This document shows positions 36,452 through 64,000 of a stretch of 64,000 bases of DNA, piece by piece (position 1 is the first letter of the stretch; each line of letters begins with the position of its first letter). The stretch covers positions 8,734-72,733 of the forward strand of contig CAZYPW010000007.1 of the NCBI GenBank assembly GCA_964649615.1, read 5' to 3'. Both the position numbers and the translations under genes were made by a program. The stretch comes from an uncultured Gammaproteobacteria bacterium (GTDB lineage: Bacteria; Patescibacteriota; Microgenomatia; Daviesbacterales; UBA10151). Under the pieces are notes generated by a model that made no database searches, had not been told where the DNA came from, and worked only from the letters and a program-made list of their open reading frames with translations.

Positions 36452-36545
36452 CTTTTGTTATGTATATCCATGTATCCATACATAAATACACTAAGTAATT
36501 TTTGGGGTATTGACACCTTTGGGATATATTTGGTAATTTTAATTT

Positions 36546-44673: not shown

Positions 44674-44674
44674 T

Positions 44675-45460: not shown

Positions 45461-45464
45461 GCTT

Positions 45465-46688: not shown

Positions 46689-47880
46689 ATTTTAGATAAT
46701 AAATATAGAAAAACATAAATCCAAGGAAAACGATTAATGACATATATGAAAATAGATTGGAAGAAAGTAAATTATTAAACGGTAAATTGGTTATTCCTAC
46801 ACTATTATTGTAATAAGAGTAAGGTAAATATAGATTTAATAAAAACACTAATGAAAAAAATATATAAAAGCCTATTAAAACTTTAGATTTTAATGTCATA
46901 GCTGATAGTAATAAAAATGGAAAGAAATATGAAAAATATCGTTCATGCATTCTAGTAAGAAACATAAAAAATGCTAGCATAGAAATAGAGATTGTAAGAT
47001 ATAAAATATTACCTTTTATTTTGTTCAGGCTAAAAATTATAATTAGAAAAATTGATGTTAGCAGGAATCCCCAAGTTAACATTGGAATACCTAAAAATAA
47101 ATTTGCGTCATTTTGCCAATTACCGATAATACCCCAAAAATTTAAAGCGTTACAGGAAGTGCAATTAAATAATTTAGTAGAGCCATAATTTACATAATAT
47201 ATTCCATAAAGAGGATTGCTTGGAAAGAATGGTAAGTAGACTATAAGTGTGATTAATATAAATGCTAAAAGTGAGTATCCCCATTGTATTGGTTTAAAAT
47301 ACTTAATAAAATAAAAAATTAAAAATGGTGCCAATTCTAACGATTGGGGTTTGACAATCCAGGCGACAGAGAAAAGGATTGAACCTACAATAGGAGATTT
47401 TTTAATAAATATAGAATAAATACTTAAGAGCAAAAAAAAGATTGCCACACCATCATATTGACCCCAGATTGCAGAATTAAAAGAGAGTCCTGGATTAAAA
47501 ATGTATAATGCTGTAGCAATATAAGCTAATCTTTCATTTAGTTCTTTTCTTACTATTTTATAAATTATAAATCCTGTTGATATATCAGCTAAATTAGCAG
47601 CAAGTTTTAGTAAGAGATCTAGATTGATGGTAAAAGGCAAACTTGAAAGGATTGAATTTTTAATTAGCCCAATAAACCAAAAGAAATAAAGTATTCCAAG
47701 TGGATTATTAGTAAATATATCAGGAGAATAAAAATTAGCAGGACCACCACTCGCTAATCTTGCAGTCCAAAATCTAAAAGCACTTTGATCAGCCTCAAAA
47801 GCTGGAAGAAAGGATAATAATAATCTTATAATTAATCCAATGATCAAAATCCAATATATAATAGCAATATTTTTATTCAT
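46672..47880 (-). CDS. GT-C fold membrane glycosyltransferase (DUF2029/PMT_2-like)
   Basis: About 11 TM segments, FEADQSAFRFW loop motif, YDGVAIFF. Confidence 0.5.
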   Translation of the reverse strand: MNKNIAIIYWILIIGLIIRLLLSFLPAFEADQSAFRFWTARLASGGPANFYSPDIFTNNPLGILYFFWFIGLIKNSILSSLPFTINLDLLLKLAANLADISTGFIIYKIVRKELNERLAYIATALYIFNPGLSFNSAIWGQYDGVAIFFLLLSIYSIFIKKSPIVGSILFSVAWIVKPQSLELAPFLIFYFIKYFKPIQWGYSLLAFILITLIVYLPFFPSNPLYGIYYVNYGSTKLFNCTSCNALNFWGIIGNWQNDANLFLGIPMLTWGFLLTSIFLIIIFSLNKIKGNILYLTISISMLAFFMFLTRMHERYFSYFFPFLLLSAMTLKSKVLIGFYIFFSLVFLLNLYLPYSYYNNSVGITNLPFNNLLSSNLFSYMSLIVFLGFMFFYIYYLKYAKDN

Positions 47881-49024
47881 CCTGACATTCTTAGTATACT
47901 TGATTTCTCATAGAGGAGAAGGTGCTCACTGGAACCACTACATCTACCTTGCCGGTGCTTTTTTACAAGGACATCTGTATGTGCCAAATATCCTCACGGA
48001 ATTAATACCCTGGGGTAATAACTATTATGTAGTTTATCCTCCCATGCCAGCAATATTATTGATGCCTTTTGTTTTTATATTTGGTACTGATTTTCATCAG
48101 CCAATATTATCAATAGCACTGGGAGCAATTAATGCCGTATTAGCCTACTTAGTCTTGTTAAAATTTTTTAAGGATACTAAACTTTCTTTATGGATAAGTA
48201 TTTTATATGCATTTGGAACAATACAGTGGTATCATGCTGAGGTAGGTTCTTCCTGGTATATTGCACATATAGTTGCTTTATTTTTTTTGTGGCTAAGTCT
48301 GTTAGAACTCGTAACAAAGCAAAGACTCTTTCTGATAGGCCTATTTATTGGAGGAGCATATCTGGCCCGACTCCCAACTATTTTAGCAGTTATATTTGTT
48401 TTAATTTTTCTGAAAGAAGAATTCTTAGTTGGAAAAAGAATTAAGCAGATTAATATTAAGAATCTTTTTCTTTTCATTTTGGGATTATTGCCAGCACTTG
48501 TTATTAATGGTATGTATAATTTTTTACGTTTTGGCAAATTCTATGATTATGGTTATACTCTTTATCTAAACTCACAATCTTTAGCTATTAAAGAATTAAT
48601 TTTCCCATATGGCTTTTTTAGTATTTACTATATTCCTGATAGGATAAAAGACATTTTTTATTCGTTCCCCACTTTTACTGCTCAGCCCCCATTTGTTATT
48701 CCTTCCTTATATGCGATGGCTCTATATATTGTCACCCCGGCCTTTTTTTTAATCCTATTTGCTTCTTTTAAAAATAGATTAGTTTATTCTTCGCTGGTTT
48801 CAATTTTAATTATGTCTATTCCTATTCTAGTGAAAGGCGGTAATGGTTTTACTCAATTTGGTTTTCGCTATAGTTTAGATTTTCTCCCCTTTTTATTAAT
48901 ACTGACTGCGAGTGGATTAGAAAACAGATTTAATATCTACTCTAAATTGTTGATAGTTTTAAGTATTTTAATAAATCTTTGGGGAGTTCTAATGATTAGC
49001 TTTTTAAATATTTGGGTAATTTAA
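47840..49024 (+). CDS. GT-C fold membrane glycosyltransferase (ArnT/PMT_2-like); start uncertain
   Basis: Polytopic. YVVYPPMPAILLMPF loop. The ORF-track start overlaps the divergent neighbour by 40 nt. Confidence 0.45.
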   Translation: MIKIQYIIAIFLFILTFLVYLISHRGEGAHWNHYIYLAGAFLQGHLYVPNILTELIPWGNNYYVVYPPMPAILLMPFVFIFGTDFHQPILSIALGAINAVLAYLVLLKFFKDTKLSLWISILYAFGTIQWYHAEVGSSWYIAHIVALFFLWLSLLELVTKQRLFLIGLFIGGAYLARLPTILAVIFVLIFLKEEFLVGKRIKQINIKNLFLFILGLLPALVINGMYNFLRFGKFYDYGYTLYLNSQSLAIKELIFPYGFFSIYYIPDRIKDIFYSFPTFTAQPPFVIPSLYAMALYIVTPAFFLILFASFKNRLVYSSLVSILIMSIPILVKGGNGFTQFGFRYSLDFLPFLLILTASGLENRFNIYSKLLIVLSILINLWGVLMISFLNIWVI

Positions 49025-50952: not shown

Positions 50953-51328
50953 GGTGCCTAGGAAGCGAGTAAGCCAGATTCTGTTTTAGATGATATTTAT
51001 CTTCAGTGTGATTATTAGTCACTCTGATCCGCCTTATGGCGAGATGCTCCTTACTTTGATTATCAAGCGAGCAGCTTAATCAATTCTAGGATTGCAGCAG
51101 GGAGGATTGCCCTTCGACTCGCTTCGCTCACTCAGGGTTATAACCCTGAGTATTTGAAACTAATCGAAAACCCGTTAGCTTGGTCGTTTCATTCGGCGCA
51201 ACCCGATTCGTCACTGTTGCTCTAAACTTTGTCTTACGACCATCCGCCTTTCGGCGGACACCTTGCTCTATGCTGTCTGGACTTTCCTCTCCGCCAAAGG
51301 CGGAGTAATCATCCTTCTTCCTAGGCTT
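50953..51328 (-). ncRNA. rnpB: RNase P RNA (bacterial type A)
   Basis: The reverse complement carries a 10-bp P1 (GCCUAGGAAG/CUUCCUAGGC), P3 hairpin CUCCGCCUUUGGCGGAG, P4 5' strand GAGGAAAGUCCAGAC, CAUAGAGCAAGGUG, and P4 3' strand ACAGAAUCUGGCUUA. Confidence 0.85.
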
Positions 51329-51362: not shown

Positions 51363-52067
51363 ATGCTGTCCAAAATTCATTCAGCTGCTAATATTGGTTT
51401 AGATGCTACTCTAATCACTGCGGAAGTTGATGTATCTGCTATGGGCCTGCCCGCATTTATAATTGTTGGTTTGGCAGATAGAGCTGTTGAGGAGAGTAAA
51501 GAGAGAGTTAAACTTGCTATAAAAAATAGTGGAGTTGAATTTCCTGACCACAAGATTACAGTAAATTTGGCACCTGCAGATTTGCCAAAAGAAGGACCAA
51601 TATTTGATTTACCAATTGCTTTAGGGATACTTGCTTCATCAGGTCAAATTCTAAGCAATCAAAATTTCAATTTGAAAGAAACCTTAGTAATAGGAGAATT
51701 ATCTTTGGATGGGACACTAAGATATACCCGTGGAATTTTACCAATTAGTTTATTTGCCCAATCTTATGGTTTTAAAAACATTATCGTCCCTTTTGAAAAT
51801 GCCCAAGAGGCAGCTTGTGTGGAAGGATTACAAGTTTTTGCTTTCCACTCTTTACAACAAATAATCAAAGTGTTGTTAGGGCAGGAACCAATAAATCCCA
51901 TTAAAAAAGAAAGCCTAAATTTAGAAGAGGATTTAATATTTGATTATGATTTTTCTCAAATTAAAGGTCAAGAACAAGCCAAGAGAGCTCTGGAAATTGC
52001 TGCTACAGGTGGCCACAATATTTTACTAATGTGGACACAATACCAACAATTGAGTTCAAAATTGTAA
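51363..52067 (+). pseudogene. comM: comM/yifB (Mg-chelatase-like competence protein) 5' fragment, truncated at the start of the AAA+ domain
   Basis: Lon-like N-domain (GLPAFIIVGLADRAVEESKERVKLAIKNSG, KITVNLAPADLPKEGPIFDLPIALGILA) and ...GQEQAKRALEIAATGGHNILLM. It then diverges before the expected GPPGSGKT Walker A. Confidence 0.7.
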
Positions 52068-52301
52068 AAATGTTGCCTAAAGTTGTCAATCAACATAAGA
52101 TAATCTGGCCTACAATATAATGGACAGACTCAAATATGGCATATTGCTAAGATTCGGTTTGCTTCTGATTATTATAGGAATAGCCTTGGGTGGATTAAAA
52201 GGAATTGAATATATGTTCCAATGGATTATCAGACATATATTCTAAATTCTCCTTAAAAATGGCACTTGTAAATTAAAATATCCAGAAGTATAGTTGGGTT
52301 A

Positions 52302-52535
52302 ATGAAGAAGCTAACAGGATTTCTATTCGCAGCTATACTATTTATCTCCTTAGCTCTGATAAGTGTTCCAGAAGCAGAAGCATACCAAAGAGTAAGAGGT
52401 TACACCCGAAGCAATGGCACTTATGTTCAGCCTTACTACCGCAGTTATTCAAACAGTACAAGATGGGACAACTTCTCAACTAGAGGTAACTACAACCCCT
52501 TTACTGGTAGCCGTGGTTATAGAAGCCCTTGGTGA
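52302..52535 (+). CDS. small secreted Tyr/Arg/Gly-rich protein (signal peptide)
   Basis: N-terminal hydrophobic signal ...SVPEAEA. Low-complexity mature part. Confidence 0.4.
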   Translation: MKKLTGFLFAAILFISLALISVPEAEAYQRVRGYTRSNGTYVQPYYRSYSNSTRWDNFSTRGNYNPFTGSRGYRSPW

Positions 52536-52554
52536 AGATATGTTCATGTTACAT

Positions 52555-52869
52555 TTACCTTTCAGTAGTTTCACAAACTAAAATAGTCATTCCATCTTTA
52601 ATCTTACAATTCTTCCCACATTCATAATCGTAACCTTCACCACTGGGGTTGTATCTATCAACCATAGAGTCAACCCAGTCTCTACATTCATCAATTGATT
52701 TGTAAATGGGACTCTTAATATCTCTGGTTAAATCTCCAGCATTTGGGTAGTAGAAACCTTGCCATGTATCCGCCTGTCTGAAGAAGAACCACCAAATTAG
52801 TCCTATTATTACTATGACTCCGAAAATTGATCCCTCATGATTTCTTTTCTCCTCTGGAAGGTCATCCAT
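52555..52869 (-). CDS. single-pass membrane protein with Cys-containing extracytoplasmic domain
   Basis: TM helix IFGVIVIIGLIWWFFF. Confidence 0.35.
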   Translation of the reverse strand: MDDLPEEKRNHEGSIFGVIVIIGLIWWFFFRQADTWQGFYYPNAGDLTRDIKSPIYKSIDECRDWVDSMVDRYNPSGEGYDYECGKNCKIKDGMTILVCETTER

Positions 52870-52878
52870 TACTTCCAG

Positions 52879-53283
52879 TTATAGCCATTGTGCTACTCCT
52901 CCATGATGACTGCATGTCCCCCTCCTGCTTTGACTGTAGCTGTAAGTTCCATCCCTACATTTGGCAGTTGCACCAGCAGGAACATTATTTGCAGGACAGG
53001 GTCTAGCTACCTCTTGACCAAAACTATTGATATAGGTACCACAACCAGCATCAATTACCGGAGGTTTAACCTTTGGGGTTGGGCTTACTACTGGTTTAGC
53101 TGTGGGATTTGGAGTAGGTGTAGGGGTTATGGTTGGAGTTGGAGTATTTGTCGGATTTGGTACTGCTTCTATTTGAGTACCAGCAACTTGGGGATTTGAA
53201 GAACTAAAAATTCCACCTAATACAACTAACCCAATTACTATTCCAACACCAATTAAAATCTTATTCTTCATTTTTCTTACCAA
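52879..53283 (-). CDS. membrane-anchored DUF3761-domain protein with Pro/Thr-rich linker
   Basis: TM, PTxTP repeats, C-terminal CRDGTYSYSQSRRGTCSHHGGVAQWL (DUF3761 signature). Confidence 0.55.
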   Translation of the reverse strand: MVRKMKNKILIGVGIVIGLVVLGGIFSSSNPQVAGTQIEAVPNPTNTPTPTITPTPTPNPTAKPVVSPTPKVKPPVIDAGCGTYINSFGQEVARPCPANNVPAGATAKCRDGTYSYSQSRRGTCSHHGGVAQWL

Positions 53284-53500
53284 AATTATACACCTGGTAG
53301 ATTACTCCACCAAGTGGAGGATTGAATTTTCACTTGATAAGAGGTATTAGTAAGCTACTACGAAAATACTAATTTTATCTATAAGCATTATTGTAGGTTT
53401 CTATAATCTATTTGGTTTAACCCCTAGTGTCTTTGCTCAACAGGGATGTTGTTCATGGCATGGTGGCATCAGTTATTGCGACTACAGTACTGGAAGATAT

Positions 53501-54508
53501 GTGTGTAATGATGGTGAATATAGTCCAACATGTACTTGTAGTGGGTATCAGCCACCTCCTACATGTCCTCTATTTTCCTCTTATGACAGCCTTTCTAGTT
53601 CTTGTAAGTGCAATTATGGTTATGTATCGGATGGTGGTAGATGTATTTCAGAAGATCAATACTGTCAAGACCGCTATGGTTGGAACTCTAGGTATAATAC
53701 TTTAACTGATAATTGTGAATGTTCATATGGTAATGTAGTTGATCCATCTACAAATAGGTGTATCAGTGGCAATCAATATTGTTGGAATAAGTATGGTTAC
53801 AACTCCTCATACCAAAGTTGGGATAAAAGTTGTGCATGTAGTTATGGATATGTATTTAACAGATCAGGTACACAATGTGTATCAAGAGATGCTGCCTGTG
53901 AAGATCAATTTGGATTTGGAAGTGAGTATAGCTCTTTAGAGGATGGCTGTATATGTCAATCTGGCTACAAATTTGAAGGTTCAGAATGTGTATTAGATGT
54001 CCAAACTCCTATATTTGTCCCCCGAAATCCACCACCTTCATTGCCCTCTCCATCGCCTACCTTACCGCCAGTACAAGTACCAAAGACTACACCTCAACCT
54101 ACACCTAAGCCTCAAGTTGCAACTTCTACTCCTTCACCTAAAGCTATCCCACAGTTAAAACCTCCTTACCAACTTGATAGTTCCCTATGGCCAGAGTCCA
54201 TTGAGCAGATTAAAATTCTGCAAACTGCATTAGCCACAGATAAGGATATCTATCCCGAAGGAATTATAAGTGGTAATTATGGTTCTCTAACACAAGCAGC
54301 AGTTAAAAGATTTCAAAGAAAGCATGAATTAGGGGAAACTGGTAGCGTAGATAGCAGTACGATTACCAAGTTTAATGAGGTATTTGGAGAAAAGCCAACT
54401 CCATCAATTTCTAGTAATCAAGAGAATACTGAGCCTAAAAACTGGCAGAGAAAAGTTGTGGATGGTATTTGGAATGTTATTACAGGTGTTTGGAAAGCTA
54501 TCTTTTAA
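53501..54508 (+). CDS. secreted cysteine-rich repeat protein with C-terminal peptidoglycan-binding (PGBD) domain; true start upstream and non-canonical
   Basis: At least 5 repeats of about 37 aa (C.C.YGYV....C.S.DQYC..YG.NS.Y......C). PT-rich linker. LQTALATD...GNYGSLTQAAVKRFQRKHEL PGBD. The frame is open from 53372 and encodes a signal-like FLSISIIVGF...VFAQQ followed by a DUF3761-like CCSWHGGISYC, with no ATG/GTG/TTG in that stretch. Confidence 0.5.
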   Translation: MCNDGEYSPTCTCSGYQPPPTCPLFSSYDSLSSSCKCNYGYVSDGGRCISEDQYCQDRYGWNSRYNTLTDNCECSYGNVVDPSTNRCISGNQYCWNKYGYNSSYQSWDKSCACSYGYVFNRSGTQCVSRDAACEDQFGFGSEYSSLEDGCICQSGYKFEGSECVLDVQTPIFVPRNPPPSLPSPSPTLPPVQVPKTTPQPTPKPQVATSTPSPKAIPQLKPPYQLDSSLWPESIEQIKILQTALATDKDIYPEGIISGNYGSLTQAAVKRFQRKHELGETGSVDSSTITKFNEVFGEKPTPSISSNQENTEPKNWQRKVVDGIWNVITGVWKAIF

Positions 54509-54524
54509 TGGAAAGGGGGTGAAT

Positions 54525-54887
54525 ATGAATACAACTACAAAATGGATATTTGCAGTTATTGCAGCAGCAGTTATAGGAGGTGGTACAGTAGCATTATTAG
54601 GGAATAGATCATCAACACCTACACCTACTGCTCAACCATCGGGTGTTCAACAGCCAACAGTTACACCTCAAGCATCAGAACCTTCTCAACCCAGCTCAAC
54701 TCCAACACCTACAAAGGTAGGTAATTGTCTGATTAAAGGTAACATTAGTTCTAGTGGTGAGAAGATTTACCACATGCCAGGACAACAGTATTATGACAGG
54801 ACTAAGATTGATTTAAGTGCTGGGGAAAGGATGTTCTGTACAGAGGATGAAGCAGTTGCTGCTGGCTGGCGTAAATCAAAGGTATAG
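54525..54887 (+). CDS. small secreted protein with PT-linker and conserved C-terminal YHxPGxxYY...F..EAxAAGWR domain
   Basis: RBS AAGGGGG, N-terminal TM/signal, TPTPT linker, KIYHMPGQQYYDRTK...FCTEDEAVAAGWRKSK. Confidence 0.45.
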   Translation: MNTTTKWIFAVIAAAVIGGGTVALLGNRSSTPTPTAQPSGVQQPTVTPQASEPSQPSSTPTPTKVGNCLIKGNISSSGEKIYHMPGQQYYDRTKIDLSAGERMFCTEDEAVAAGWRKSKV

Positions 54888-54890
54888 AAA

Positions 54891-55499
54891 ATGAGATTAA
54901 GAAAGCTAGGTAACATACCCACCTTAATAGTTTTAGTGGCGGTTATATCAGCATTGGCTATGTTGATACTACCACAATCTCCATATAGGATTTTTAATCG
55001 TTATCAAGTTGAACAGCAGCTTAAAAGATTGCAGATAGAGTTGGATGAAACCAGTAAGAAGTTAGAGCAAGCTACATCTAGTGCAACCCCAGTTTTTACC
55101 AAAGAATTTGTCAAAGTAACTAAAGTTATTGATGGAGATACAATAGAGATAGAGGGAGGGTATCATGTCAGGTATATTGGTATTGATACCCCAGAAACAG
55201 TACACCCAAGCAAACCTGTCCAATGTTTTGGTAAAGAAGCTAGTAATAAGAATAAGGAGCTAGTAGAAGGTAAGATAGTTAGATTAGAAAAAGATATAAC
55301 AGAGATTGATCGTTACGGGAGATTGTTACGCTATATTTGGATAGATGATACTTTAGTTAATGAAGTTCTAGTAAAAGAGGGATATGCTAATTCTTATACA
55401 TACCCACCTGATGTAAAGTATCAGGATAGGTTTATCAAAGCCGAAAGAGAAGCAAGGGAAAGTAAAAAGGGATTATGGGCTAGTTGCCCTGTCTCTTAG
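54891..55499 (+). CDS. membrane-anchored thermonuclease (staphylococcal nuclease, SNase-like)
   Basis: VIDGDTIEI...RYIGIDTPE...YGRLLRYIW...KKGLWA. Confidence 0.85.
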
Positions 55500-55503
55500 T
55501 AAC

Positions 55504-55833
55504 ATGGATAAAAATACAGTATTTGTTGTTGGTTTCTGGGTAGTTTTAATAGGAGGGATAATTTGGTGGAATCTTGCTAGCAGTGATTCATCAAAGACAA
55601 AGTCAGTAAAGCAGTACAATACCCCAACCTACGATCTTAATGTTGATGATTCTTATGAGAGATATGATGATCCAGAAACAGAAAGGTCATTCTCATCAGG
55701 AGATTATGACTGTTCAGACTTCTCTACACAAGATGAAGCACAAGAGTTCTTTGAAGATGAGGGTGGCCCAGATGATGACCCTCATAATTTAGATAGAGAT
55801 GGAGATGGGATAGCTTGTGAAACATTACCATGA
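55504..55833 (+). CDS. membrane-anchored Excalibur calcium-binding domain protein
   Basis: C-terminal [38 protein letters not shown]. Confidence 0.75.
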
Positions 55834-56360
55834 ATGAGAAACTAGCCTTGCTTTTAACTTCAGTACGATCCCATATTACTCTTACAAATATGCTTTTAGT
55901 CACAATTCTAGTGTTAGTCTTTTCTGGATTCTATATTTCAGCTCCTCAATTTAAGAATTTCATTGATAACATTGGTTATTCAACTAAAGCCGAAAGGGTT
56001 GGTACAGCTACTTTCATCTGTACTTATGGGAAGTTAACTAAAGAGGAATATGAAAGTAGAATAGATGAGCTTAATAAGCAAATAGAAGCTGAAAAATTAA
56101 AAGATAAATTACTTAATATGGATTTAATTACATTGAAGGTTGATCTTGAGTCACTACAGAGAGAAAGCTATTTAACTACTAAGAAGGAAGATATTGATGT
56201 AATTAGAACTAGGAAGTTCAGGTTTGGATTCACAACTTATGACTCCTACGGATATGCAGGAGAAATACCAAAGGATGGTATGGATCACAAATGTAAATGC
56301 GAAAAGACTGGAATAGGTGGTCTGTGTGAATGGAAACCTATCAATAAAGTAGATAATTAA
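55830..56360 (+). CDS. hypothetical membrane-anchored coiled-coil protein
   Basis: N-terminal TM, central coiled coil. No recognised domain. Confidence 0.3.
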
Positions 56361-56878
56361 TGATATCTGTAGATAGCCACATTCTTAATCATACTACCTT
56401 CAAAATCTTTTGAAATTGAGATGATAATATCTTCAATCTCACTATAATCCAATGAATTATGTTGCTTATTACCTAACAGTCTATCTGATAAATGTTCAAA
56501 TATGGATTTCTTAATTTTAGGTAACTTAATACTTCCAATGGCAACTGACTTTGCTTCATATAATTCGGCTAGGATAAAAGCATTCCTCAAGGATTGATGG
56601 AGGCCAATATAATTAGTTCCAACATCTTGTATATGGTCATAAATTGGCATGAAGATAATATTTTTAGTCTGAAGGTTATATCCTTTGACTATAGCTGTAT
56701 TGCCAATTTCACAGTAGCCAATAGCAGAGAGTTCTCTAACTAAATCTTGCCCACCTCTATCTAAAACCTTCCCGACTATACCCTCCTTCTTATAAGTTAA
56801 ATCTGAATCACAAGGTATGATAATAATGTCACCAGTAAAATCACCTATACTGTCTGTGCATATTTGGATATTCATCAA
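56357..56878 (-). CDS. hypothetical protein, possibly macro-domain-like
   Basis: Weak pattern GDIIIIPCDSDL...GIVGKVLDRGGQDL...GNTAIVKGYNL..KNIIFMPI resembling macro domain blocks. Confidence 0.3.
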   Translation of the reverse strand: MMNIQICTDSIGDFTGDIIIIPCDSDLTYKKEGIVGKVLDRGGQDLVRELSAIGYCEIGNTAIVKGYNLQTKNIIFMPIYDHIQDVGTNYIGLHQSLRNAFILAELYEAKSVAIGSIKLPKIKKSIFEHLSDRLLGNKQHNSLDYSEIEDIIISISKDFEGSMIKNVAIYRYH

Positions 56879-56903
56879 TAGTTATAATTTTTAGAACAAG
56901 AGC

Positions 56904-57392
56904 TTACTTGAATAGCTTCTGAGTAGGACACAATTGTTCTACACAGGAATAATAGAATTGATCTTTATCTTTTGAAATTAAATAATCCCAATTCTCATTT
57001 CTTTTTATCTGTCTGATACCCTCGTAATTACATTTAGGGTCTCTACCTTCTGTAAGATTTCTGTGTAAGCTCCCTGCGAAGTCAGTATTATCACTATATC
57101 CATAAGTTTGTTTGCAGTAAGCATCATCCCTCTGAAATAAAGCTTGCCAATTCTGCTTTGATTCTAAATCATCATGCCTTGACCAAAAGACACAGCCAGC
57201 AATACCTGAGTGGTTAGGATAGGTGGGATATTCTTTTTCAATACATTGTTGCTGATTGAATGTAAAGAAATCCTTATTGAGTTGGAAACCGAGAAGTCTT
57301 AGGATAACTATCCATAGTAGAATGAATAGACTTAGTCCAAATAGAGAATAGACAGTAACTCTTAATACTTTTCCTCTAAAAAACTTATTCAT
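56904..57392 (-). CDS. hypothetical membrane-anchored Cys-containing protein
   Basis: N-terminal TM. No recognised domain. Confidence 0.3.
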   Translation of the reverse strand: MNKFFRGKVLRVTVYSLFGLSLFILLWIVILRLLGFQLNKDFFTFNQQQCIEKEYPTYPNHSGIAGCVFWSRHDDLESKQNWQALFQRDDAYCKQTYGYSDNTDFAGSLHRNLTEGRDPKCNYEGIRQIKRNENWDYLISKDKDQFYYSCVEQLCPTQKLFK

Positions 57393-57435
57393 AATTATAT
57401 TATCTCATTGAAAGTAGTATACATGGAATACTGAA

Positions 57436-57999
57436 TTAGTTTAGGAATCCTTCAATTTTAGATTCAGATGGAAATTGTATTATGCTTAATTTCCCAGTCC
57501 CAAAGGCAATCTTGAGTGAATACTTACGCCCAGTTATATCTTGATAAGTTATCTTAATAGGGATATTATGATTTGCAAACTCTGGGTCAAGGTAAGCTGA
57601 TAGATCCCAGTTCTGCATAAGTTCGTTATTTAAGTAGGTCTCATATATTAAGTCTTTTTCCTCATCCTTTACTAGGATATTAGGATCACTCATACTCAAT
57701 ACATATTTGTAAGTTTTATCTATCTTCTTTCCTTTAATGCGTAGGTAAAAGTTTTCAATTTCAATGTTAAGAGCTGCACCATAGCCAATGTTTCTTATTC
57801 TAAAGACTCTATGTACTCGTCTTTGAGTATCTGTTATTTTCCTTCTGTAAATAACAGGTAGAGGCATCAAGCTTTGCTTAGTTTGCTTGATAGAAGTTCT
57901 CCATATTCCCAAAGTAAAGTATGCATATATTCCAGCCACAATAGCTGTAATTAACAAGAGAGCAGCAGATGCTATAGATGTGAGTTCAATTATTGTCAT
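57436..57999 (-). CDS. hypothetical membrane-anchored protein
   Basis: N-terminal TM. No recognised domain. Confidence 0.3.
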   Translation of the reverse strand: MTIIELTSIASAALLLITAIVAGIYAYFTLGIWRTSIKQTKQSLMPLPVIYRRKITDTQRRVHRVFRIRNIGYGAALNIEIENFYLRIKGKKIDKTYKYVLSMSDPNILVKDEEKDLIYETYLNNELMQNWDLSAYLDPEFANHNIPIKITYQDITGRKYSLKIAFGTGKLSIIQFPSESKIEGFLN

Positions 58000-58412
58000 C
58001 TTATTATTGAATTTGCAGATATTTTAACATTTTAAGTATTAAAACTAATTATCTTGATTTAGAGAGCTAAATTGATATCTTCTTGAAAAGGAAAGCAAAT
58101 GTCTTTCCCTATTGATTCAGTGAGGCTGACTGCTAAACTTAAAACATAACCTAAATATAGATTAGATTGATATATCAATGAAAATGGAACAGTTAAGAAA
58201 AAGAAATTCTAGGAAATCATTAGTTCCTCTTACTCAAATAGAAATTATCAGAAATATCAATAAATCTACACAGAACTCATATAAGTACTTTGGTTTACTC
58301 AATTGGAAAGGAAATTGAATGACAGGTCAAACTACATTAGAAATCTCTTGCAATCTAGGTGAACCTAGCAAAGTATGTTTCTGCAAAATTGCAGACGATG
58401 AAAAGATGAATT

Positions 58413-59072
58413 ATGAAGCCTAAAGAGCAAATATCTCTATTTACATTTTTCCAACCAGAAGAAAAGAAAGAAGAAAAGGCTCATGTAACTAAAAATGGCT
58501 ATGACTTTAGTGAAGTGACCAGTGCTTTGCAGAAGGCAATCAGAGCCTCCGACGAGGAAGCTGCCATTTTTTGGGCATATGAATTATCTGAAAGTAATGC
58601 TTGGCATTATCTTCTTAAAAGATTGTGCGTAATAGCTTCAGAGGATTGTGCTGATCCACAGGCTGGATTGATAGCTGAATCAACCTACATGGCTTGTACG
58701 ATCATGTGGGGTAAAGCCCAAGCTACGAAATCATATTATCAGGTTGATATGAACATGGTGGGAAAAGTAATTCTATATTTGTGCCGAACCCCTAAAAATC
58801 GGATAGTTGATATTTCTACAACTCTAATTTATGAGAAAAGGAAAGCTGGATGGAGATTGGAAGTTCCCGAAATCGCAGTTGACAGTCATACTTCTAAGGG
58901 AAAGAAACTCATTAAAGAGGAAGGGATTGATCCTAATAGGCAGTTTTATGCACAGGGAGCACAGGTTAAAAACAGGGTCAGGATTGATAAAGACCAATAC
59001 TACTGGGATAAGTTGATGGAAATTTATGGCTTGGATGATTTGGTTGGTAAAGAAACAGAGGAAATGAAGTGA
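58413..59072 (+). CDS. stand-alone RarA/MgsA C-terminal (MgsA_C) domain-like protein
   Basis: YDFSEVTSALQKAIRASDEEAAIFWAYELSESNAWHYLLKRLCVIASEDCADPQAGLIAEST parallels the RarA HYDxISAFxKSxRGSDxDAAlYWlaRM...ASEDIGlADP block. No AAA+ ATPase domain. Confidence 0.55.
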   Translation: MKPKEQISLFTFFQPEEKKEEKAHVTKNGYDFSEVTSALQKAIRASDEEAAIFWAYELSESNAWHYLLKRLCVIASEDCADPQAGLIAESTYMACTIMWGKAQATKSYYQVDMNMVGKVILYLCRTPKNRIVDISTTLIYEKRKAGWRLEVPEIAVDSHTSKGKKLIKEEGIDPNRQFYAQGAQVKNRVRIDKDQYYWDKLMEIYGLDDLVGKETEEMK

Positions 59073-59282
59073 AAATATGTACAGGCACAGAATTTACTAA
59101 GCAGTTCTATGCGGTATCAGCACAGCAATCTGCAAGAAAAGGATTTCCGCATAGGATAAAGATAATATCTGTAGCTAATGAGTAGACAGGTTCATTTAGC
59201 TTGAATATGTGGTGTATTAAATCTATGCAACAGGTACTTGAAGGAAGGAAATAGCCTTTTTTACCCTTGCAGTACAGGAAAT

Positions 59283-59489
59283 TTAAGAAAGGAGTTCGGC
59301 AGCAGTGCAACCAAATACCTTTGCAATTCTGTTCAATGTCTTAATTGTAGGATTCTTTCTCCTAGCATTCTCAATTTCTATTACAGTCTTTGGGTCAACA
59401 TTTGCCAACCCTGCAAGTTCTTCCTGTGTTAGGCCTTTTTCTTTCCTTAACCTTCTGATTTTATCACCTAGTTTCTTTAGGCTCGCCAT
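59283..59489 (-). CDS. XRE-family (Cro/CI-type) helix-turn-helix transcriptional regulator
   Basis: LGDKIRRLRKEKGLTQEELAGLANVDPKTVIEIENARRKNPTIKTLNRIAKVFGCTAAELL. Start set at the internal Met. Confidence 0.75.
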   Translation of the reverse strand: MASLKKLGDKIRRLRKEKGLTQEELAGLANVDPKTVIEIENARRKNPTIKTLNRIAKVFGCTAAELLS

Positions 59490-59592
59490 TGACAGAATTA
59501 TGGAATATATGCCAGACTTATGACAGGAAATATATTCCAGATTTACGCATGAATTTGAAGCTAAAAGGTAATTTACAAGATTGGAGGATAAT

Positions 59593-59919
59593 ATGAAGCT
59601 AAGAAATAACATACTGGTAATCGGCTCTGTAGTTTTAATTGCTATTGCAGTTGCTTATTACTTCTTAATTTATCTCCCTAAACAACAGGAATTGAGGCTA
59701 CTCCAGGAGGAAACTACTCTTAGGAAACAGACTTATGAGCTTTGCCTAAAAGAAGTTAATAATCTAATTGATGAAAGTGTAAATACTTTAGGTAGAATGT
59801 TTGCAGCTGGCGAAATTACTAAACAGGTGATGGAGGATAGAGTTATGATTCTTCTCTCAAAAAAAGATGAAGTTATTACTAATTGTGTTGAAAAGAGAAT
59901 TCAAGAGTATAGGAAGTGA
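59593..59919 (+). CDS. hypothetical single-pass membrane protein, divergent from the XRE regulator
   Basis: RBS GGAGGA 7 nt upstream. TM helix. Confidence 0.3.
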   Translation: MKLRNNILVIGSVVLIAIAVAYYFLIYLPKQQELRLLQEETTLRKQTYELCLKEVNNLIDESVNTLGRMFAAGEITKQVMEDRVMILLSKKDEVITNCVEKRIQEYRK

Positions 59920-60185
59920 GGAATGCCGGATGGAAACAATTCTTTTTAGGGGGTGAGAATTTAATGAAAAACATAATTTGGGGTATTTTAGTTTTACTGC
60001 TTCTAATTGTTCTATTTAATCAGTTAATTAGACTCGGTGATGTTTCAATTAAGGAGAAAGAGGTTGAGAAACAGCTTGCAGAATCCCGCTCCAACTATAT
60101 CCAGCTTTTAGATAAGTATTGCAAAGGTAAAGATTGTAAGATTGAGAATGGTGCATTGGTTTGTAAACTCTTAGAAGAAAAATGA
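59916..60185 (+). CDS. hypothetical small membrane protein
   Basis: TM helix. Likely start at the internal MKNIIWG. Confidence 0.25.
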   Translation: MRNAGWKQFFLGGENLMKNIIWGILVLLLLIVLFNQLIRLGDVSIKEKEVEKQLAESRSNYIQLLDKYCKGKDCKIENGALVCKLLEEK

Positions 60186-60186
60186 A

Positions 60187-60774
60187 ATGAAGGCTAAAGT
60201 AAAGTATCTACTCTTAATCATTGGACTTATAATTACAGTTCTAGTTGTTAAAAAGTTGTACTTAGTCTTATCTGTACAGAACCCACCCAATATATCATTT
60301 GAAAGCCCAAAGGCTGTTCAGTTGGAGTTAAAGTATCCTTATGAAGTGAAGGATTTAACTGATAAGGAAAAAGGGGGAGTTTTACAACTTGTTAGAACAT
60401 TTGAAACTCTGCAATATGAAAGGAAGGCAAAAGAAGTATTAGCTCTGTTTACCCTAGCTGCTCTTAAAGATGAAAAAGATCAACTGGATTTTCTGGAAGG
60501 AAAAGATATCAATTCAAGCCCAAGACTTTACAGCACAGCTGAATTTAATTGTTCCTTAAATTGGTACATGGTAAGAAGCATTGAAAAAGATAATGCAGGC
60601 ATATCTGTTACTTTGAAAGAGTTGAGGACATATTACAACAATGAAACAGCAGACTACATAGCTAAGATTGATGATTTTACCCTAGCTTTATCCCTGAAAA
60701 AAGATAATGGATATCAAGTAGAAGGATACAAGCAGGAATCTCCTGGAAAATACAGTGGCTTTGATTGTCTTTGA
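60187..60774 (+). CDS. hypothetical membrane-anchored protein
   Basis: N-terminal TM, translationally coupled to the upstream ORF. Confidence 0.3.
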   Translation: MKAKVKYLLLIIGLIITVLVVKKLYLVLSVQNPPNISFESPKAVQLELKYPYEVKDLTDKEKGGVLQLVRTFETLQYERKAKEVLALFTLAALKDEKDQLDFLEGKDINSSPRLYSTAEFNCSLNWYMVRSIEKDNAGISVTLKELRTYYNNETADYIAKIDDFTLALSLKKDNGYQVEGYKQESPGKYSGFDCL

Positions 60775-60902
60775 ACCACCCACCCCACCCGCTGAATGAA
60801 ATGCTGCTAGAGGAAGCTGTATGCTACTCCTTTCTTCTAAATATGCTTCATTAAAGCTATTTTCATATCTGCAAAAAATTTCATTTACCTAATAAGGTTT
60901 AA

Positions 60903-61706
60903 TTGGTAAAATTAGGCCATATGGATATGAAAATGGAAGATGAAAAAGTTAGAGGAACATATATCTCTAAAGTTCGTAATCTATCAGGTTCAACAATAGA
61001 ATCTCTACATAAAATAGTTTCTGAAGTTTTGAAAGAAAAGGAACTTAATAGAAATGGGATGATTCAACTTCCTAATACCCATGAAAACCAAACAATTTTA
61101 GCATACATAGAGGATGAATTTAGTATTAAGCCTTATTTAAGTAATAGACCTTGGTTCAAAACAGATACATGTCAATTAGATTTTTACCCAGAAGAAATTA
61201 ACAATCTGGTAGTGTTAGATAAAATTCTGGCAATAAAATTAGGATTGGCACAAAAGTTAAAACTTATGGAGAGATTAAATTTCATACAAAACTTAAAACA
61301 GTTTCAGAAGAAACATGGAAAAAGAGATGACGAAGAAAAGTCGTTTTGTAAATTTGAAAATGATTCTTTCTTTATGAAACTTAATGATGGGTCGGATGGT
61401 TCTATAAATTTTACAGTTAAAAGAGGCAATGAAGATATGGTGACTCTATTCGCAGTATTCTTTGATCATTGGAAATCTTTTGGAGAAAAAGATAATGGTT
61501 GGATAGTAGTCAAGATGAGCAAGGATGAGATTAAAAAAAGATTTGCAGAAAAAGGTAAAAAAGATATCTCAGATAATTGGATAAAAGATACCGTAAGCAA
61601 TATAAGGAATATAAAAATAGGGCCATCTAAACTGAATGGTTATTTATCATTTGATTACTATGATCGTAAAGCTAATGTATACCCATTTAGGATAAAGAAA
61701 GTTTAG
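60903..61706 (+). CDS. hypothetical protein
   Basis: Long ORF, no recognised domain. Confidence 0.3.
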   Translation: MVKLGHMDMKMEDEKVRGTYISKVRNLSGSTIESLHKIVSEVLKEKELNRNGMIQLPNTHENQTILAYIEDEFSIKPYLSNRPWFKTDTCQLDFYPEEINNLVVLDKILAIKLGLAQKLKLMERLNFIQNLKQFQKKHGKRDDEEKSFCKFENDSFFMKLNDGSDGSINFTVKRGNEDMVTLFAVFFDHWKSFGEKDNGWIVVKMSKDEIKKRFAEKGKKDISDNWIKDTVSNIRNIKIGPSKLNGYLSFDYYDRKANVYPFRIKKV

Positions 61707-61989
61707 ATAAGCTCCAATATCCAATTTTATGATGTCCTTCTTACGCCCAGCGTAAAATAAAAAGACTTACTTTACGCACAAATTGCCTATATTGACAGAA
61801 TTTCAGCGTACCAGCATGGTCAAACCATGCAATCTAAATCTAAAGATTTTCAAGTTGTATATCAATTTGATCCAGTTGCTATTCCTAACTGGCAAGAGAG
61901 GCTAGCTTCCGCATTTGAAATTCTGTTCAAGAAAATTGATGAGCTTGAAGATAGAGGATTGAGAGGATTAAAAGGAAAAGGAGAGGATT

Positions 61990-62253
61990 ATGGAGAATAC
62001 ACAACACCCTAGTACAGCAATCCGAGACCTGAATATTGCAGCATTTCTCATGGCGTCTGGCCAAGTTAAGTTAGTTAATGTTGAACGCCATCCTGATAAT
62101 ACTACCTACTTTCACTTTGAACCTAAAGAAATTGCCGAGGGTCTAGTAACAGCATATTGGGCAGAGGACGCACCACCAATCCAGCCCAAGAAACTCTTAG
62201 GAAGTCTGCGTGATTTAAAGGATATTCTGTTCTCGGGAGGTAAAAATGATTAA
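61990..62253 (+). CDS. hypothetical small protein
   Basis: Overlaps the start of the downstream P-loop gene. Confidence 0.25.
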   Translation: MENTQHPSTAIRDLNIAAFLMASGQVKLVNVERHPDNTTYFHFEPKEIAEGLVTAYWAEDAPPIQPKKLLGSLRDLKDILFSGGKND

Positions 62254-63616
62254 AGAAAACCCCCAACTAGGAAATACTAAAGAAGTAGGTTTCAAAGCCG
62301 CAGATAGCGAGACGAAAATTCCAGATAGTAGCCAGCAATTGATTCCCTCAAACCTTTCTTATGAGGAAATAGAAGCTAAAGTTAAGAATTTCTTACCAGG
62401 TTCACAAACAGCCTTAAAACTTATATTAGCAGTGGCAGTTTCTAGTCAATATCAAAACTCAGTCATGCTTTGGCTCCTATTAGTAGGAGTTCCTTCATCT
62501 GGAAAAACTGAATTAGTCCGTCTTACAAAGGATGTAGCAGAGATTACTTACTATTTAGATAATTTAACCCAAAATGCTTTCATATCAGGAGAGAGACCAA
62601 CTAGAAATGAAAGAGTACATGATTTACTGCCTTTGCTAGATAAAAAATGTCTAATTATCAAAGACTGGACAGCAATCTTTTCTCTTGACGAAAAGATGAC
62701 CAAAAAACTACTTGGAGATTTAGTAGGAATTTATGATAAAGAGTTCACAAAATTTAGTTCTAGAAGAGGTAATATTAGCTATTCTAGTGCCTTTTCTCAA
62801 CTTGGTTGTATTACCCCAGCCACTCTGAATAGACATACCAACTATATGAATATGGTTGGTCCCCGATTCCTGTGTTATACAATCCCTCAACCAAACCTTG
62901 GCGATGAAAATGAAAGTTACGATTTGATATTTTCAAGCCATGATAGATCAGCCACTGAAAAAGAAGCGAGACTGTATGTATCTGCTTACCTTAATGAATT
63001 ATCAAAGCGAACCCCTAATATAAAACCACTTACAAAAGAAATTCAAAATTTCCTTAAAACTGCTGCTAAATTAATGTCTAATTGTCGGGGAATAGTACTT
63101 CTGCAAGCAGCTACTTTTAAGAATGAAGATGGTGAGGAAGTTAAGTATTATGAGGTATTAGATGTCCAAATAGAAGAGCCTTGGAGAGCAATACAACAGT
63201 TGATTTCTTTAGCAAAATATTTAGCCTTTGTAGTAGGTAAGGATGAAGTCGGAGTGGAGGAATTAGAGATAGTTAAAGAGGTAGTAATCTCCTCAATGCC
63301 TGCTGATCGCTCTCAAGCATTAAGAGTAGTAATTGCAAAAGAAGGAGAGATTACCGCTAAAGAGCTTTCAGAATTTTCAGATAAGTCAACTAGAACTTCC
63401 CGAAGACTGCTAGATGAATTGGATGCTTTGAAGGTATTGGAGAAAATTAAAGGTGTAGGCACGATAGCCAATGATTACAAGATTAATGAGCAATTTAAGG
63501 AGTTCCTAATATTAGACCCTACGGAATTTCTGTCCCACAAGGTAGTTAGTAGGACAGAAAGTGGAGAGGGCATACAGGTTATGAAGGAGGATTCAAATGA
63601 ACCCCTCCCATATTGA
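62246..63616 (+). CDS. P-loop NTPase, putative replication/primase-helicase-like protein with C-terminal winged-helix-like region
   Basis: Walker A LLLVGVPSSGKTEL. Downstream acidic Walker B-like LIIKDW. Confidence 0.45.
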   Translation: MIKENPQLGNTKEVGFKAADSETKIPDSSQQLIPSNLSYEEIEAKVKNFLPGSQTALKLILAVAVSSQYQNSVMLWLLLVGVPSSGKTELVRLTKDVAEITYYLDNLTQNAFISGERPTRNERVHDLLPLLDKKCLIIKDWTAIFSLDEKMTKKLLGDLVGIYDKEFTKFSSRRGNISYSSAFSQLGCITPATLNRHTNYMNMVGPRFLCYTIPQPNLGDENESYDLIFSSHDRSATEKEARLYVSAYLNELSKRTPNIKPLTKEIQNFLKTAAKLMSNCRGIVLLQAATFKNEDGEEVKYYEVLDVQIEEPWRAIQQLISLAKYLAFVVGKDEVGVEELEIVKEVVISSMPADRSQALRVVIAKEGEITAKELSEFSDKSTRTSRRLLDELDALKVLEKIKGVGTIANDYKINEQFKEFLILDPTEFLSHKVVSRTESGEGIQVMKEDSNEPLPY

Positions 63617-63830
63617 AAGGATAAAAGAGTTGTTCAAAAAACTAAAGTTGGGTTATGACTGGTGTCAGAGAAATCAGCATAACCAAACTGGAATAGAAGA
63701 ACTATACAAAAGGACTGAACAGATATTTCAAGAGCTTGAGAGTTTAGGTGTATCTCGGACATTTTCTGAGGCTCTGTTTGTGTTTGGGGCTTTTAGTAAT
63801 CATGAAGTTTTACATGGACAGAAACATTAA
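63597..63830 (+). CDS. hypothetical small protein
   Basis: Overlaps the preceding gene's end. Confidence 0.25.
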   Translation: MNPSHIERIKELFKKLKLGYDWCQRNQHNQTGIEELYKRTEQIFQELESLGVSRTFSEALFVFGAFSNHEVLHGQKH

Positions 63831-63914
63831 ATTTGACAACAGTGTTCAGCATGCTACGCTATAAATAAACCTAATTATGGAGATTAAAATGAAAAACAGA
63901 AAGATGAAGAACAA

Positions 63915-64000
63915 ATGAGAATTTGCCTATATTGCAGGGTTTCAACAGAGAAGCAGAAAGATGAAAAGACTATTGATTCCCAGATTGAGGAATTAGAAAA
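63915..64000 (+). CDS. serine recombinase (resolvase/large serine integrase family), N-terminal fragment; continues beyond window
   Basis: MRICLYCRVSTEKQKDEKTIDSQIEELE matches the catalytic YxRVSTxxQ ... SxxxQ motif at the recombinase N-terminus. Confidence 0.65.
   Translation, partial: MRICLYCRVSTEKQKDEKTIDSQIEELE

Follow-up and report, generated by a model that had tools for sequence, protein, structure and literature searches.

In Wolbachia, prophages of the sr1WO group (WORiC, WOVitA2 and WOCauB2) enter a gene of the Mg-chelatase family by means of a serine recombinase, and the recombinase gene is terminal in these prophages, where it adjoins a fragment of the chelatase gene (PMC5062602, PMC9203015, PMC5447182). 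In the papers that describe them, the target is named 'chlI' or 'magnesium chelatase-related'. These WO prophages are complete tailed phages, 40–65 kb in length, that carry modules for head, tail and eukaryotic association. We take their target gene to be the orthologue of comM/yifB, an equation made in the present analysis. Homologues of the Mg-chelatase/ATP-dependent protease are reported as the target of 12.4% of the predicted site-specific large serine recombinases (LSRs) surveyed by Durrant et al. 2022, where LSRs of many clusters hit this gene family and competence genes are enriched among LSR targets (PMC10083194).

Competence genes are interrupted in other bacteria too. In Acinetobacter baumannii, disruption of comM by AbaR/Tn6022-type islands lowers transformation, an effect believed to keep the island from being cured (PMC11441513, PMC12378983). 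The cargo of these islands is antibiotic resistance. They are Tn7-like transposons, which move by transposition with a target-site duplication and involve no serine-recombinase attP or attB. In Listeria, the phages A118 and phi10403S use a serine integrase to insert into the coding sequence of comK, and their precise excision can restore the gene. The likeness of the Listeria case to the locus described below is also backed by comK entries (PMC12378983).

Here, the window is the whole stretch of 64,000 nucleotides that was analysed. It represents the end of contig JACOXE010000004.1 of a Candidatus Daviesbacteria MAG, on which some further sequence follows beyond the window. This DNA probably holds a 13.46 kb integrative element (element 1), neither a complete phage nor conjugative, which was put into Daviesbacteria comM by its own LSR. 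Like the sr1WO prophages, element 1 combines an LSR that enters a gene of the Mg-chelatase family (a likeness at the level of the gene family), a terminal recombinase gene and a host with a reduced genome, but it is only 13.5 kb long and lacks structural genes. The WOVitA2 recombinase is also the best phage match to its LSR (30% identity along the full length, E 5e-67). The sequence-only reading had held that a serine-integrase element using comM was undescribed in reduced-genome lineages; the Wolbachia prophages, which do so in the Mg-chelatase gene, contradict it. Element 1 fits the pattern of Durrant et al. by its target gene family, while here two LSR families hold two sites of one gene copy. 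With the AbaR/Tn6022-type islands it shares the target gene and the consequence, but not the cargo. Compared with A118 and phi10403S, which are complete phages, the competence gene is a different one, and a second insertion bars restoration by a single excision.

The evidence for an insertion begins with the target gene. The 5′ fragment of comM (51363..52029, + strand) encodes residues 1–223, which comprise the Lon-like ChlI domain (Pfam E 6e-46) and the beginning of the AAA+ domain, with a match to Mg_chelatase limited to positions 1–28. When residues 1–223 of the intact ComM P0001 were compared by tblastn, they aligned with 51363–52028 of the window, and the homology ends at 52028, which corresponds to residue 223 of 510. 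The gene is unbroken through GGHNILL (codon 223, window 52029) and disrupted thereafter: its ORF (51363–52067) reads on into element DNA and ends ...GGHNILLM-WTQYQQLSSKL, with a stop at 52067. Two further pieces were recovered. The middle piece (98 aa, L002 9722–10018) resumes at KGPPGAGKT, where the last codons of the LSR gene overlap it, and the 3′ piece (184 aa, L114 28–582) was found on a separate contig of the assembly, JACOXE010000013.1, followed by DUF4446, DUF3048 and SecD, as beyond intact comM. The three pieces are collinear with the 510-aa orthologue P0001 and fit end to end with 0 residues missing or duplicated. Together, they display the ComM/YifB architecture of a Lon-like N-terminal domain, AAA+ Mg_chelatase and Mg_chelatase_C in about 510 aa. 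By separating the N-terminal domain from the Walker A motif and everything downstream, the insertion would make ComM null.

Relatives show the locus in its uninterrupted form. The order miaA, AI-2E permease, RNase P RNA, comM, DUF4446, DUF3048 and SecD is shared among them, and in the genomes with that order comM is intact and the 13.5 kb are absent; the element 1 stretch is missing from orthologous loci L005, L010, L011 and L013. In orthologous genomes that share this gene order, the uninterrupted comM reads NILLKGPPGAGKT, and intact ComM orthologues, up to 79% identical, read GGHNILLKGPPGAGKT in the same synteny. An empty-site allele of this strain was not found, and the closest intact ComM among the database proteins has only 79% identity.

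The part of element 1 in the window is 52030..64000, and the remaining ~1.5 kb follow on the same contig; the cores of attL and attR give a total length of 13,459 bp, with the end of the element at window-equivalent 65488. attL (52000..52055) consists of a host half ...CAGGTGGCCACAATATTT, the core TACTAA at 52024–52029 and an element half TGTGGACACAATACCAAC..., while at attR the 3′ end of the LSR gene overlaps ...CTACTAAAGGGTCCACCTGGTGCTGGTAAAACTATG, translated in the comM frame as KGPPGAGKTM. The sequence common to attL and attR is the 6-bp core TACTAA only. When the host halves are joined, they give CACAATATTTTACTAAAGGGTCCACCTGGTGCTGGTAAA, which encodes HNILLKGPPGAGK, the peptide that intact orthologues also have. 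Imperfect dyad symmetry is seen in both reconstructed sites, attB (score 15/24) and attP (11/24), in the same register and with the centre at the 5′ edge of the core. The dinucleotide at this common centre is TT in attL and CT in attR, so that either the crossover pair is the adjacent TA or a substitution occurred after integration. Both junctions were recovered at 100% identity in separately assembled Logan contigs from four runs, possibly the MAG's own or sibling read sets, and a Logan contig of run SRR12113430 provides an independent assembly of attL.

The recombinase lies at the attR junction. Its gene starts at 63915 (+ strand) with ATG, MRICLYCRVSTEKQ..., and the window holds the first 28 of its codons (63915..64000); it is the last gene of element 1 and ends at window-equivalent 65510, its final 7 codons being within comM DNA. 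The complete protein of 531 aa carries the Resolvase, Recombinase (PF07508) and Zn_ribbon_recom (PF13408) domains of Pfam, is full length and has the RVST nucleophile motif. Its catalytic domain matches the TP901-1 integrase (E 2e-14) and also the gamma-delta and Tn3 resolvases, and NCBIfam gives partial matches to CcrB, CcrC and XisF across residues 2–470. Relatives of this LSR occur at the identical comM position on metagenomic contigs, namely L054 (67% identity), L055 (52%) and L056/L057 (47%), all four of which meet comM at the codons that immediately precede GPPGAGKT, the Walker A motif. Their cargo differs from that of element 1 and includes Prim-Pol in addition to ParB, an N6 methylase and HsdS.

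The observation made from the letters alone is confirmed, and its interpretation is supported in part. The features named by the sequence-only reading are present, at or within ~10 bp of where it had placed them. Its integrative element with comM as attB for a large serine recombinase is supported, now with a length of 13,459 bp and the LSR at the junction; the recombinase that it saw begin at 63915 is complete past the window; the 3′ part of comM that it predicted beyond the recombinase was found there as GPPGAGKT...; and the comparison with related genomes that it had proposed gave the same gene order, intact comM and no 13.5 kb. Neither of the outcomes that it had named as contrary occurred (an intact comM elsewhere with no 3′ fragment beyond the recombinase, or the same gene order in relatives with no recombinase). 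It had rightly seen comM broken before the Walker A motif, but the junction is at 52029/52030 and not at 52039.

Integration would begin with synapsis of an LSR dimer on the circular element (attP = ...AAGTCCACAACCTACTACTAATGTGGACACAAT...) with a dimer on attB. Cleavage of both sites at a central dinucleotide within TACTAA would follow, then rotation of one half and religation of the ends. Excision would need a directionality factor, and no recombination directionality factor was identified in element 1.

About 300 bp downstream of element 1, a second LSR-type element breaks comM again, at RQPL|ED, an interruption that the earlier reading had overlooked. This second element is unrelated to element 1. 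Its ends were identified: its attP shows a near-perfect dyad around GA, and a 558-aa LSR adjoins an identical attR2 in L115. Because comM is interrupted twice, excising element 1 alone would not restore the gene; restoration would require the excision of both elements.

The state of the locus also bears on whether element 1 still moves. It might be a fixed and immobile remnant, a domesticated or decaying island that is permanent in comM. The element is identical in every assembly recovered, neither the empty site nor the excised circle was found, and its attP is absent from IMG/VR viral contigs. Its GC content (35.5%) shows no shift from the rest of the window (35.8%) and is thus indistinguishable from that of the host, and the second element in the same gene implies that comM has probably not been functional for a while. 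In addition, the possible mismatch of the central dinucleotide between attL and attR would, if real, block excision. Nevertheless, the LSR is full length with its three domains and nucleophile motif, all ORFs of the element are open, both att half-sites are well preserved, and close LSR relatives at the same site with other cargo indicate recent activity of the family. We regard a remnant as rather unlikely.

The gene content of element 1 falls into a cargo block and a rightward operon. Most of the proteins encoded in the cargo block (52120..57999) are small and have a hydrophobic stretch at the N-terminus; that they are membrane-anchored or secreted was read from the sequences and not by a prediction tool. 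Pfam identified a DUF3761 protein (52879–53283, − strand), a Cys-rich protein with PG_binding_1 (53501–54508), an SNase nuclease (54891–55499; E 1e-28, and E 8e-44 to the PHROGs nuclease family phrog_20876), an Excalibur protein (55504–55833) and a Macro-domain protein (56357–56878, − strand). The block also holds a 121-aa protein (54522–54887). Other ORFs in it have no assigned family. A 219-aa protein follows (58413..59072, + strand), with matches to MgsA_C (Pfam E 2e-8) and to the 'ATPase' family phrog_33349 (E 7e-15); its likeness is confined to the C-terminal domain of MgsA/RarA, without the AAA+ core, and its NCBIfam match to RarA is partial. Thus, Pfam bears out the SNase, Excalibur, Macro and XRE assignments made earlier, together with PG_binding_1 and the MgsA_C-like protein, while of the several DUF3761 proteins reported only one ORF matches that family. 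No complete defence system was found in the cargo by PADLOC.

An XRE-family HTH regulator of 68 aa (59283..59489, − strand; Pfam HTH_3 E 1e-15, with matches to PHROGs repressor and regulator families) is divergent from the rightward operon, across a gap of ~100 bp. According to the ORF lists, this operon comprises eight genes (59593..63830, + strand) and leads into the LSR gene; it contains small and membrane ORFs of unknown function, an unknown 267-aa protein, a DUF5659 protein, a helicase and a 77-aa ORF. The frequency of promoter-like and terminator-like sites is not above that in shuffled sequence, so that the gene layout is the only basis for proposing an operon and an XRE switch. The regulator probably represses the divergent operon, from the helicase to the LSR at its end, and derepression would lead to excision and episomal replication of the element. 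The earlier description of an XRE repressor with a lytic-side arrangement holds for the divergent regulator, but 'lytic-side' was overstated, as structural, lysis and packaging genes were not found.

Prim-Pol-MCM fusion helicases are found in bacterial prophages and integrated elements, for instance BcMCM of Bacillus cereus. The helicase of element 1 is an MCM-like AAA+ ATPase of 456 aa (62246..63616, + strand), with the Walker A motif GVPSSGKT and a C-terminal winged helix. Its AlphaFold2 model (pLDDT 90.4) has MCM2-7 and archaeal MCM as top Foldseek matches (E ~1e-8, TM 0.45–0.49), and the winged helix matches ArsR/SmtB-type chains. Among 3640 homologues, many carry an N-terminal fusion to Prim-Pol+PriCT_1, Toprim or AEP. 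The protein thus resembles the Prim-Pol-MCM fusions in its predicted fold, its winged helix and its close relatives with Prim-Pol/PriCT_1 or Toprim, but differs from them in having no primase domain. It is also the 'P-loop replication-like protein' of the sequence-only reading. The helicase and the next ORF, of 77 aa, are kept together in L117 (69% and 65% identity). We propose this ATPase as the element's putative replicative helicase. A primase was not found in element 1, either as a separate gene or as a domain of the helicase, and autonomous replication is therefore uncertain.

Searches with Pfam and PHROGs found no capsid, terminase, tail or lysis enzyme among the 20+ ORFs, more than half of which are without annotation, and the sole 'endolysin' matches fall on the PG_binding_1 domain alone. 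Likewise, relaxase, coupling protein and T4SS genes were not detected with Pfam and NCBIfam. A phage satellite or phage-inducible chromosomal island (PICI), with its own LSR and MCM-like helicase and dependent on a Daviesbacteria helper phage for capsids and transfer, would have such a content. Its size would suit 13.5 kb, and the integrase, the divergent XRE, a helicase of a usually primase-fused family and the lack of structural genes would be in keeping with it, as would the several cargo proteins that match PHROG families occurring in phages. However, the element showed no recognisable gene for a small terminase, for capsid remodelling or for another form of helper interference; its integrase lies at the end of a long operon, unlike that of classical PICIs, which stands beside the regulator; no helper phage is known; and no relative was found among IMG/VR viral contigs. 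On balance, a satellite seems quite unlikely. Finally, that no insertion took place, and that the DNA is ancestral core sequence beside a decayed comM pseudogene or a chimera of MAG assembly, is scarcely credible: a compositional anomaly is indeed absent and the source is a metagenome-assembled genome, but orthologous Daviesbacteria loci with the same flanking genes have an uninterrupted comM, the three comM pieces fit end to end, the junctions recur in separate assemblies, and a full LSR stands exactly at the junction.

An integrative element placed in comM by its own LSR is an insertion of a common kind, which is found here in a new host group, the candidate-phyla-radiation (CPR) bacteria, and with a second LSR-type element ~300 bp further on. 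According to the intragenomic-conflict model, element 1 would be protected by the loss of ComM from replacement by an empty allele (PMC4774983, PMC11441513). A broader reading, which we consider improbable as a whole, is that comM of Daviesbacteria, and perhaps of CPR bacteria at large, is a multi-site landing pad with stacked LSR elements, where the split gene is stable and selected and not incidental damage. If this were true, each element would silence the recombination step of transformation while DNA uptake, a presumed requirement of these bacteria for nucleotide scavenging, would be kept, and cargo for the handling of extracellular DNA, such as the membrane-anchored SNase, the Excalibur protein and related proteins, would benefit the episymbiotic host.

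The comM gene of this genome is interrupted, as the sequence-only reading had proposed, by an integrative element that carries a serine recombinase; both the observation and the core of its interpretation proved to be correct. The 5′ piece of the gene, ORF 51363-52067, encodes the Lon-like domain at the N-terminus of ComM/YifB (Pfam ChlI, E 6e-46); of the AAA+ domain (Pfam Mg_chelatase), it retains no more than the initial 28 positions. After ...GGHNILLM this ORF passes into unrelated sequence and then a stop codon, and the match to an intact 510-aa ComM orthologue ceases at residue 223, which corresponds to window position 52028. At the other edge, the ORF that starts at 63915 begins MRICLYCRVSTEKQ and runs out of the window. 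Its contig (JACOXE010000004.1, assembly GCA_016176385.1) extends approximately 2.2 kb further, where the gene is completed as a 531-aa large serine recombinase (LSR1) with Resolvase, Recombinase and Zn_ribbon_recom domains, the catalytic domain of which matches that of the TP901-1 integrase (E 2e-14). The C-terminal codons of LSR1 (...PTTKGSTWCW*) lie on the DNA ...CTACTAAAGGGTCCACCTGGTGCTGGTAAAACTATGCTG..., which reads LLLKGPPGAGKTML in the comM frame. In other words, the 3′ continuation of comM that had been predicted is found right after the recombinase and begins exactly at the Walker A motif.

An orthologous locus (JACOXI010000003.1) has the same neighbours, with miaA and an AI-2E permease before comM and DUF4446, DUF3048 and SecD after it, and its comM is an uninterrupted 509-aa gene. 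No further copy of comM was found within the 64-kb window, nor an intact allele of this strain's comM in the protein database, where the best match is 79% identical. Logan contigs that were assembled separately, from four runs, contain both junctions of the insert, called element 1 here, at 100% identity; these runs may be the read sets of the MAG itself. The start positions of C-terminal ComM fragments in the protein database show peaks at residues 223/233 and 327, but these peaks are not taken as an estimate of frequency, since they are confounded by the start choice of gene callers and by contig ends.

The att sites of the 13,459-bp element 1 can be described at base level. The only sequence common to attL (...GGCCACAATATTTTACTAA|TGTGGACACAAT...) and attR (...GTCCACAACCTACTACTAA|AGGGTCCACCTGG...) is the core TACTAA, at window 52024-52029 and window-equivalent 65483-65488, respectively. 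Rejoining of the host halves gives HNILLKGPPGAGK; in five intact Daviesbacteria orthologues the protein reads GG(A)HN(I/V)LLKGPPGAGKT, with codons of the AATATTTTACT type, as in attL. The reconstructed host site (attB) and element site (attP) show imperfect dyad symmetry, with 15/24 and 11/24 matches, respectively, and their best centre falls in one common register, on the dinucleotide that spans the 5′ edge of TACTAA. Because this dinucleotide is TT in attL and CT in attR, either the crossover took place at the adjacent TA or one base was substituted after integration. On the left side, the arms of attP and attB resemble each other (G[T/G]CCACAA ... ACTAA). When translated in the frame of comM, the element-side arm of attP gives V(H/Y)N(L/I)L(L/M)x (L002 9680-9700, on the contig sequence that extends past the window, with equivalents in L054-L056, metagenomic contigs that carry relatives of LSR1 at comM). 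It thereby mimics the host GHNILLK codons of attB, which puts the two left half-sites in the same register. A crossover at the upstream CCACAA, which is also shared, was considered and rejected, since the orthologues have AATATTTTACT-type codons like those of attL and all four elements encode valine where ComM has an invariant glycine.

In all four elements, the ORF of the LSR1 family crosses the crossover into comM DNA (L002 9655-9720 and the LSR 3′ ends of L054, L055 and L056), so integration alters the C-terminal tail of the recombinase. For LSR1, the tail has 7 aa (KGSTWCW) in the integrated state versus a predicted 30 aa in the excised state, in which the protein would have 554 aa. An integration-dependent switch was discarded as an explanation of this overlap: the four relatives have tails of 0-26 aa with no relationship to one another, and the overlap thus probably reflects no more than attP being packed tightly into the gene's end.

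The same comM is interrupted a second time. The piece that follows LSR1 has only 98 aa and ends ...LRQPLD-NS*, where orthologues have RQP(L/M/V)EDHKV, and contig JACOXE010000004.1 ends exactly at this RQPLD break. The last 184 aa of comM (MEDHKVTISRA... to the C-terminus) lie on another contig of the same assembly, JACOXE010000013.1, where they begin 27 nt from the contig end; DUF4446, DUF3048 and SecD come next, just as they do after an intact comM. The second site, RQPL|ED, lies approximately 300 bp downstream of element 1. Its left junction is ...CCCCTA-GA-CAACAGCTAGTTATAGTCGATAG... (L002 10008-10943) and its right junction ...CTATCGACTATAACTAACCAATG-GA-AGACCAT... (positions 1-40 of L114, the sequence that carries the comM 3′ piece), with a GA crossover common to both; in assembly GCA_016176385.1, the contig of this insert (element 2) would be expected to start or end with CTAGTTATAGTCGATAG / CTATCGACTATAACTA. 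By our own count, the element-side arms form a dyad that is perfect over the outer 16 bp and matches at 19/23 positions overall, which is a serine-integrase attP signature. These inverted ends are also the exact points at which the NCBI contigs break. The left end also occurs in another Daviesbacteria genome, with comM likewise truncated at RQPLD (L008 10985-12354). A third Daviesbacteria assembly has an identical right end, placed 90 nt downstream of an LSR of 558 aa (L115 1350-3130) that shares only 23% identity with LSR1. Element 2 is inferred to be another LSR element, unrelated to the first. The first gene of element 2 codes for a protein of 160 aa that contains an HEYSH motif and of which a copy with 99% identity (P0121) is recorded on a 75,125-bp NCBI contig; a homologue in a further contig lies with a 2-hydroxyacid dehydrogenase and large unknown ORFs, and comM is absent nearby. 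With these results, element 1 and its att sites are defined, as is the division of comM into three pieces.

Approximately 23 ORFs lie downstream of the comM 5′ piece within the window, and roughly 12 ORFs are without annotation. Of the annotations made by the sequence-only reading, SNase (E 1e-28), Excalibur, macro and XRE were recovered by Pfam, while its DUF3761 "proteins" were reduced to a single one; a Cys-rich protein with PG_binding_1 and an MgsA_C-like protein were further Pfam matches. The left half of element 1 encodes chiefly small proteins with N-terminal hydrophobic segments, which in our reading may be membrane-anchored or secreted. For instance, directly upstream of the SNase gene, a 121-aa protein with such a segment (54522-54887, +) carries the C-terminal motif CxIKGNIS...GEKIYH...FC..E.EA..AGWR and has phrog_21287 ("membrane associated protein", E 1e-10) as a PHROGs match; it may resemble the domain that NCBI names "sunset". 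The right half opens with the divergent XRE regulator gene (59283-59489, −), followed by a rightward string of genes (59593-63830, +) that leads into the LSR as the final gene.

Within this string, a 456-aa P-loop protein (62246-63616, +) has 3640 homologues, many with N-terminal Prim-Pol and PriCT_1, Toprim or AEP domains. The family is fused to at least three primase types (Prim-Pol/PriCT_1, Toprim and AEP-TOTE), and no Pfam model covers its ATPase part. The predicted structure (pLDDT 90.4) has MCM AAA+ and winged-helix modules as its top matches (E ~1e-8, TM 0.45-0.49), and its fold is also similar to BchI, from the same AAA+ clade as ComM, the product of the interrupted gene. The helicase and the next ORF (77 aa, 63597-63830), a candidate directionality factor, are conserved as a pair in another contig, and no primase partner was found within element 1.

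The description that fits element 1 best is that of a small integrative element equipped with modules of its own for integration, regulation and (partial) replication. Searches of it with Pfam, PHROGs and NCBIfam found no capsid, terminase, portal, tail, holin, catalytic endolysin, relaxase or type IV secretion genes, and PADLOC found no defence system, only isolated domain matches (SNc, HTH). Its GC content equals that of the host, and a promoter and terminator scan was uninformative, with counts equal to the shuffled expectation (44 versus 43.2 and 6 versus 7.4). There are two live alternatives to the description as a small integrative element, namely a phage satellite and a remnant that has become immobilised.

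A metagenome scan found relatives of LSR1 with 67, 52 and 47% identity, every one of which adjoins comM at the same codons (VYNLLMKGPPGAGKT, VHNLLLEGPPGAGKT and VHNILMIGPPGAGKT in the comM frame). The elements around these LSRs carry unrelated cargo: one has Prim-Pol, another has ParB, an N6 methylase and HsdS. Among IMG/VR viral contigs, no LSR relatives were found, nor the reconstructed attP of element 1 or the attP dyad of element 2. The top matches of LSR1 among deposited phages are recombinases of Wolbachia phage WO; that of WOVitA2 is 30% identical over its full length (E 5e-67). No Wolbachia chelatase fragment was found in the phage collection, in which the WO records either are rearranged or extend no further than the stop codon of the recombinase.

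Other positions in comM were also observed beside LSRs. In two metagenomic contigs with LSR1 relatives (L056 ~11700-11800; L057 ~3020-3100), the comM segment that follows the LSR is broken once more past ...PHHTISEAGMV, at about residue 290, and the divergence of the two contigs there suggests a further insertion site or a variant junction. In Saprospiraceae (L040, L041 and L042), the comM match extends no further than about residues 355-368, and an LSR homologue lies on the opposite strand, a few hundred bases away; likewise, an Acetoanaerobium phage record (PP197248.1 15622-17710) has a comM fragment (residues 197-358) beside an LSR. These arrangements point to another possible LSR landing site in other phyla, at about residues 355-368.

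Elsewhere in the window, the structured-looking non-coding stretch before comM is explained by a class-A RNase P RNA directly upstream (50954-51324, −; 108.5 bits versus a gathering score of 100). The sole tRNA of the 64 kb, tRNA-Pro(GGG) (36380-36452, +), is unrelated to the insertion. The lowest GC content (0.28-0.32) is found at 44000-49000, with membrane glycosyltransferase-like genes (PMT family in orthologous loci); as it is conserved in relatives, this stretch is probably core rather than foreign sequence.

Competence genes are enriched among LSR targets (PMC10083194), and the disruption of comM by diverse mobile elements, with a proposed block on transformation-mediated curing, has been reviewed (PMC12378983, PMC4774983, PMC11441513). 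The disabling of a competence gene by a mobile element is biology already well described. The claim of novelty for reduced-genome lineages could not be upheld: systems of this kind are well known, among others from a reduced-genome bacterium, which reduces the novelty to a new host group, the CPR, and to the fact that two LSR families occupy a single gene. A full-text literature search found no published LSR-borne integrative elements in CPR, which is weak evidence of their absence.

An LSR-borne integrative element is, then, documented in a CPR genome with base-level att sites, and homology ties its recombinase to the Wolbachia phage WO enzymes. To our knowledge, few genetic tools exist for CPR bacteria, and LSR1 with its defined attB and attP, as well as the near-perfect attP of element 2 around GA, could be candidate integration tools for them. 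The widespread targeting of comM by serine integrases is extended to ultra-small bacteria.
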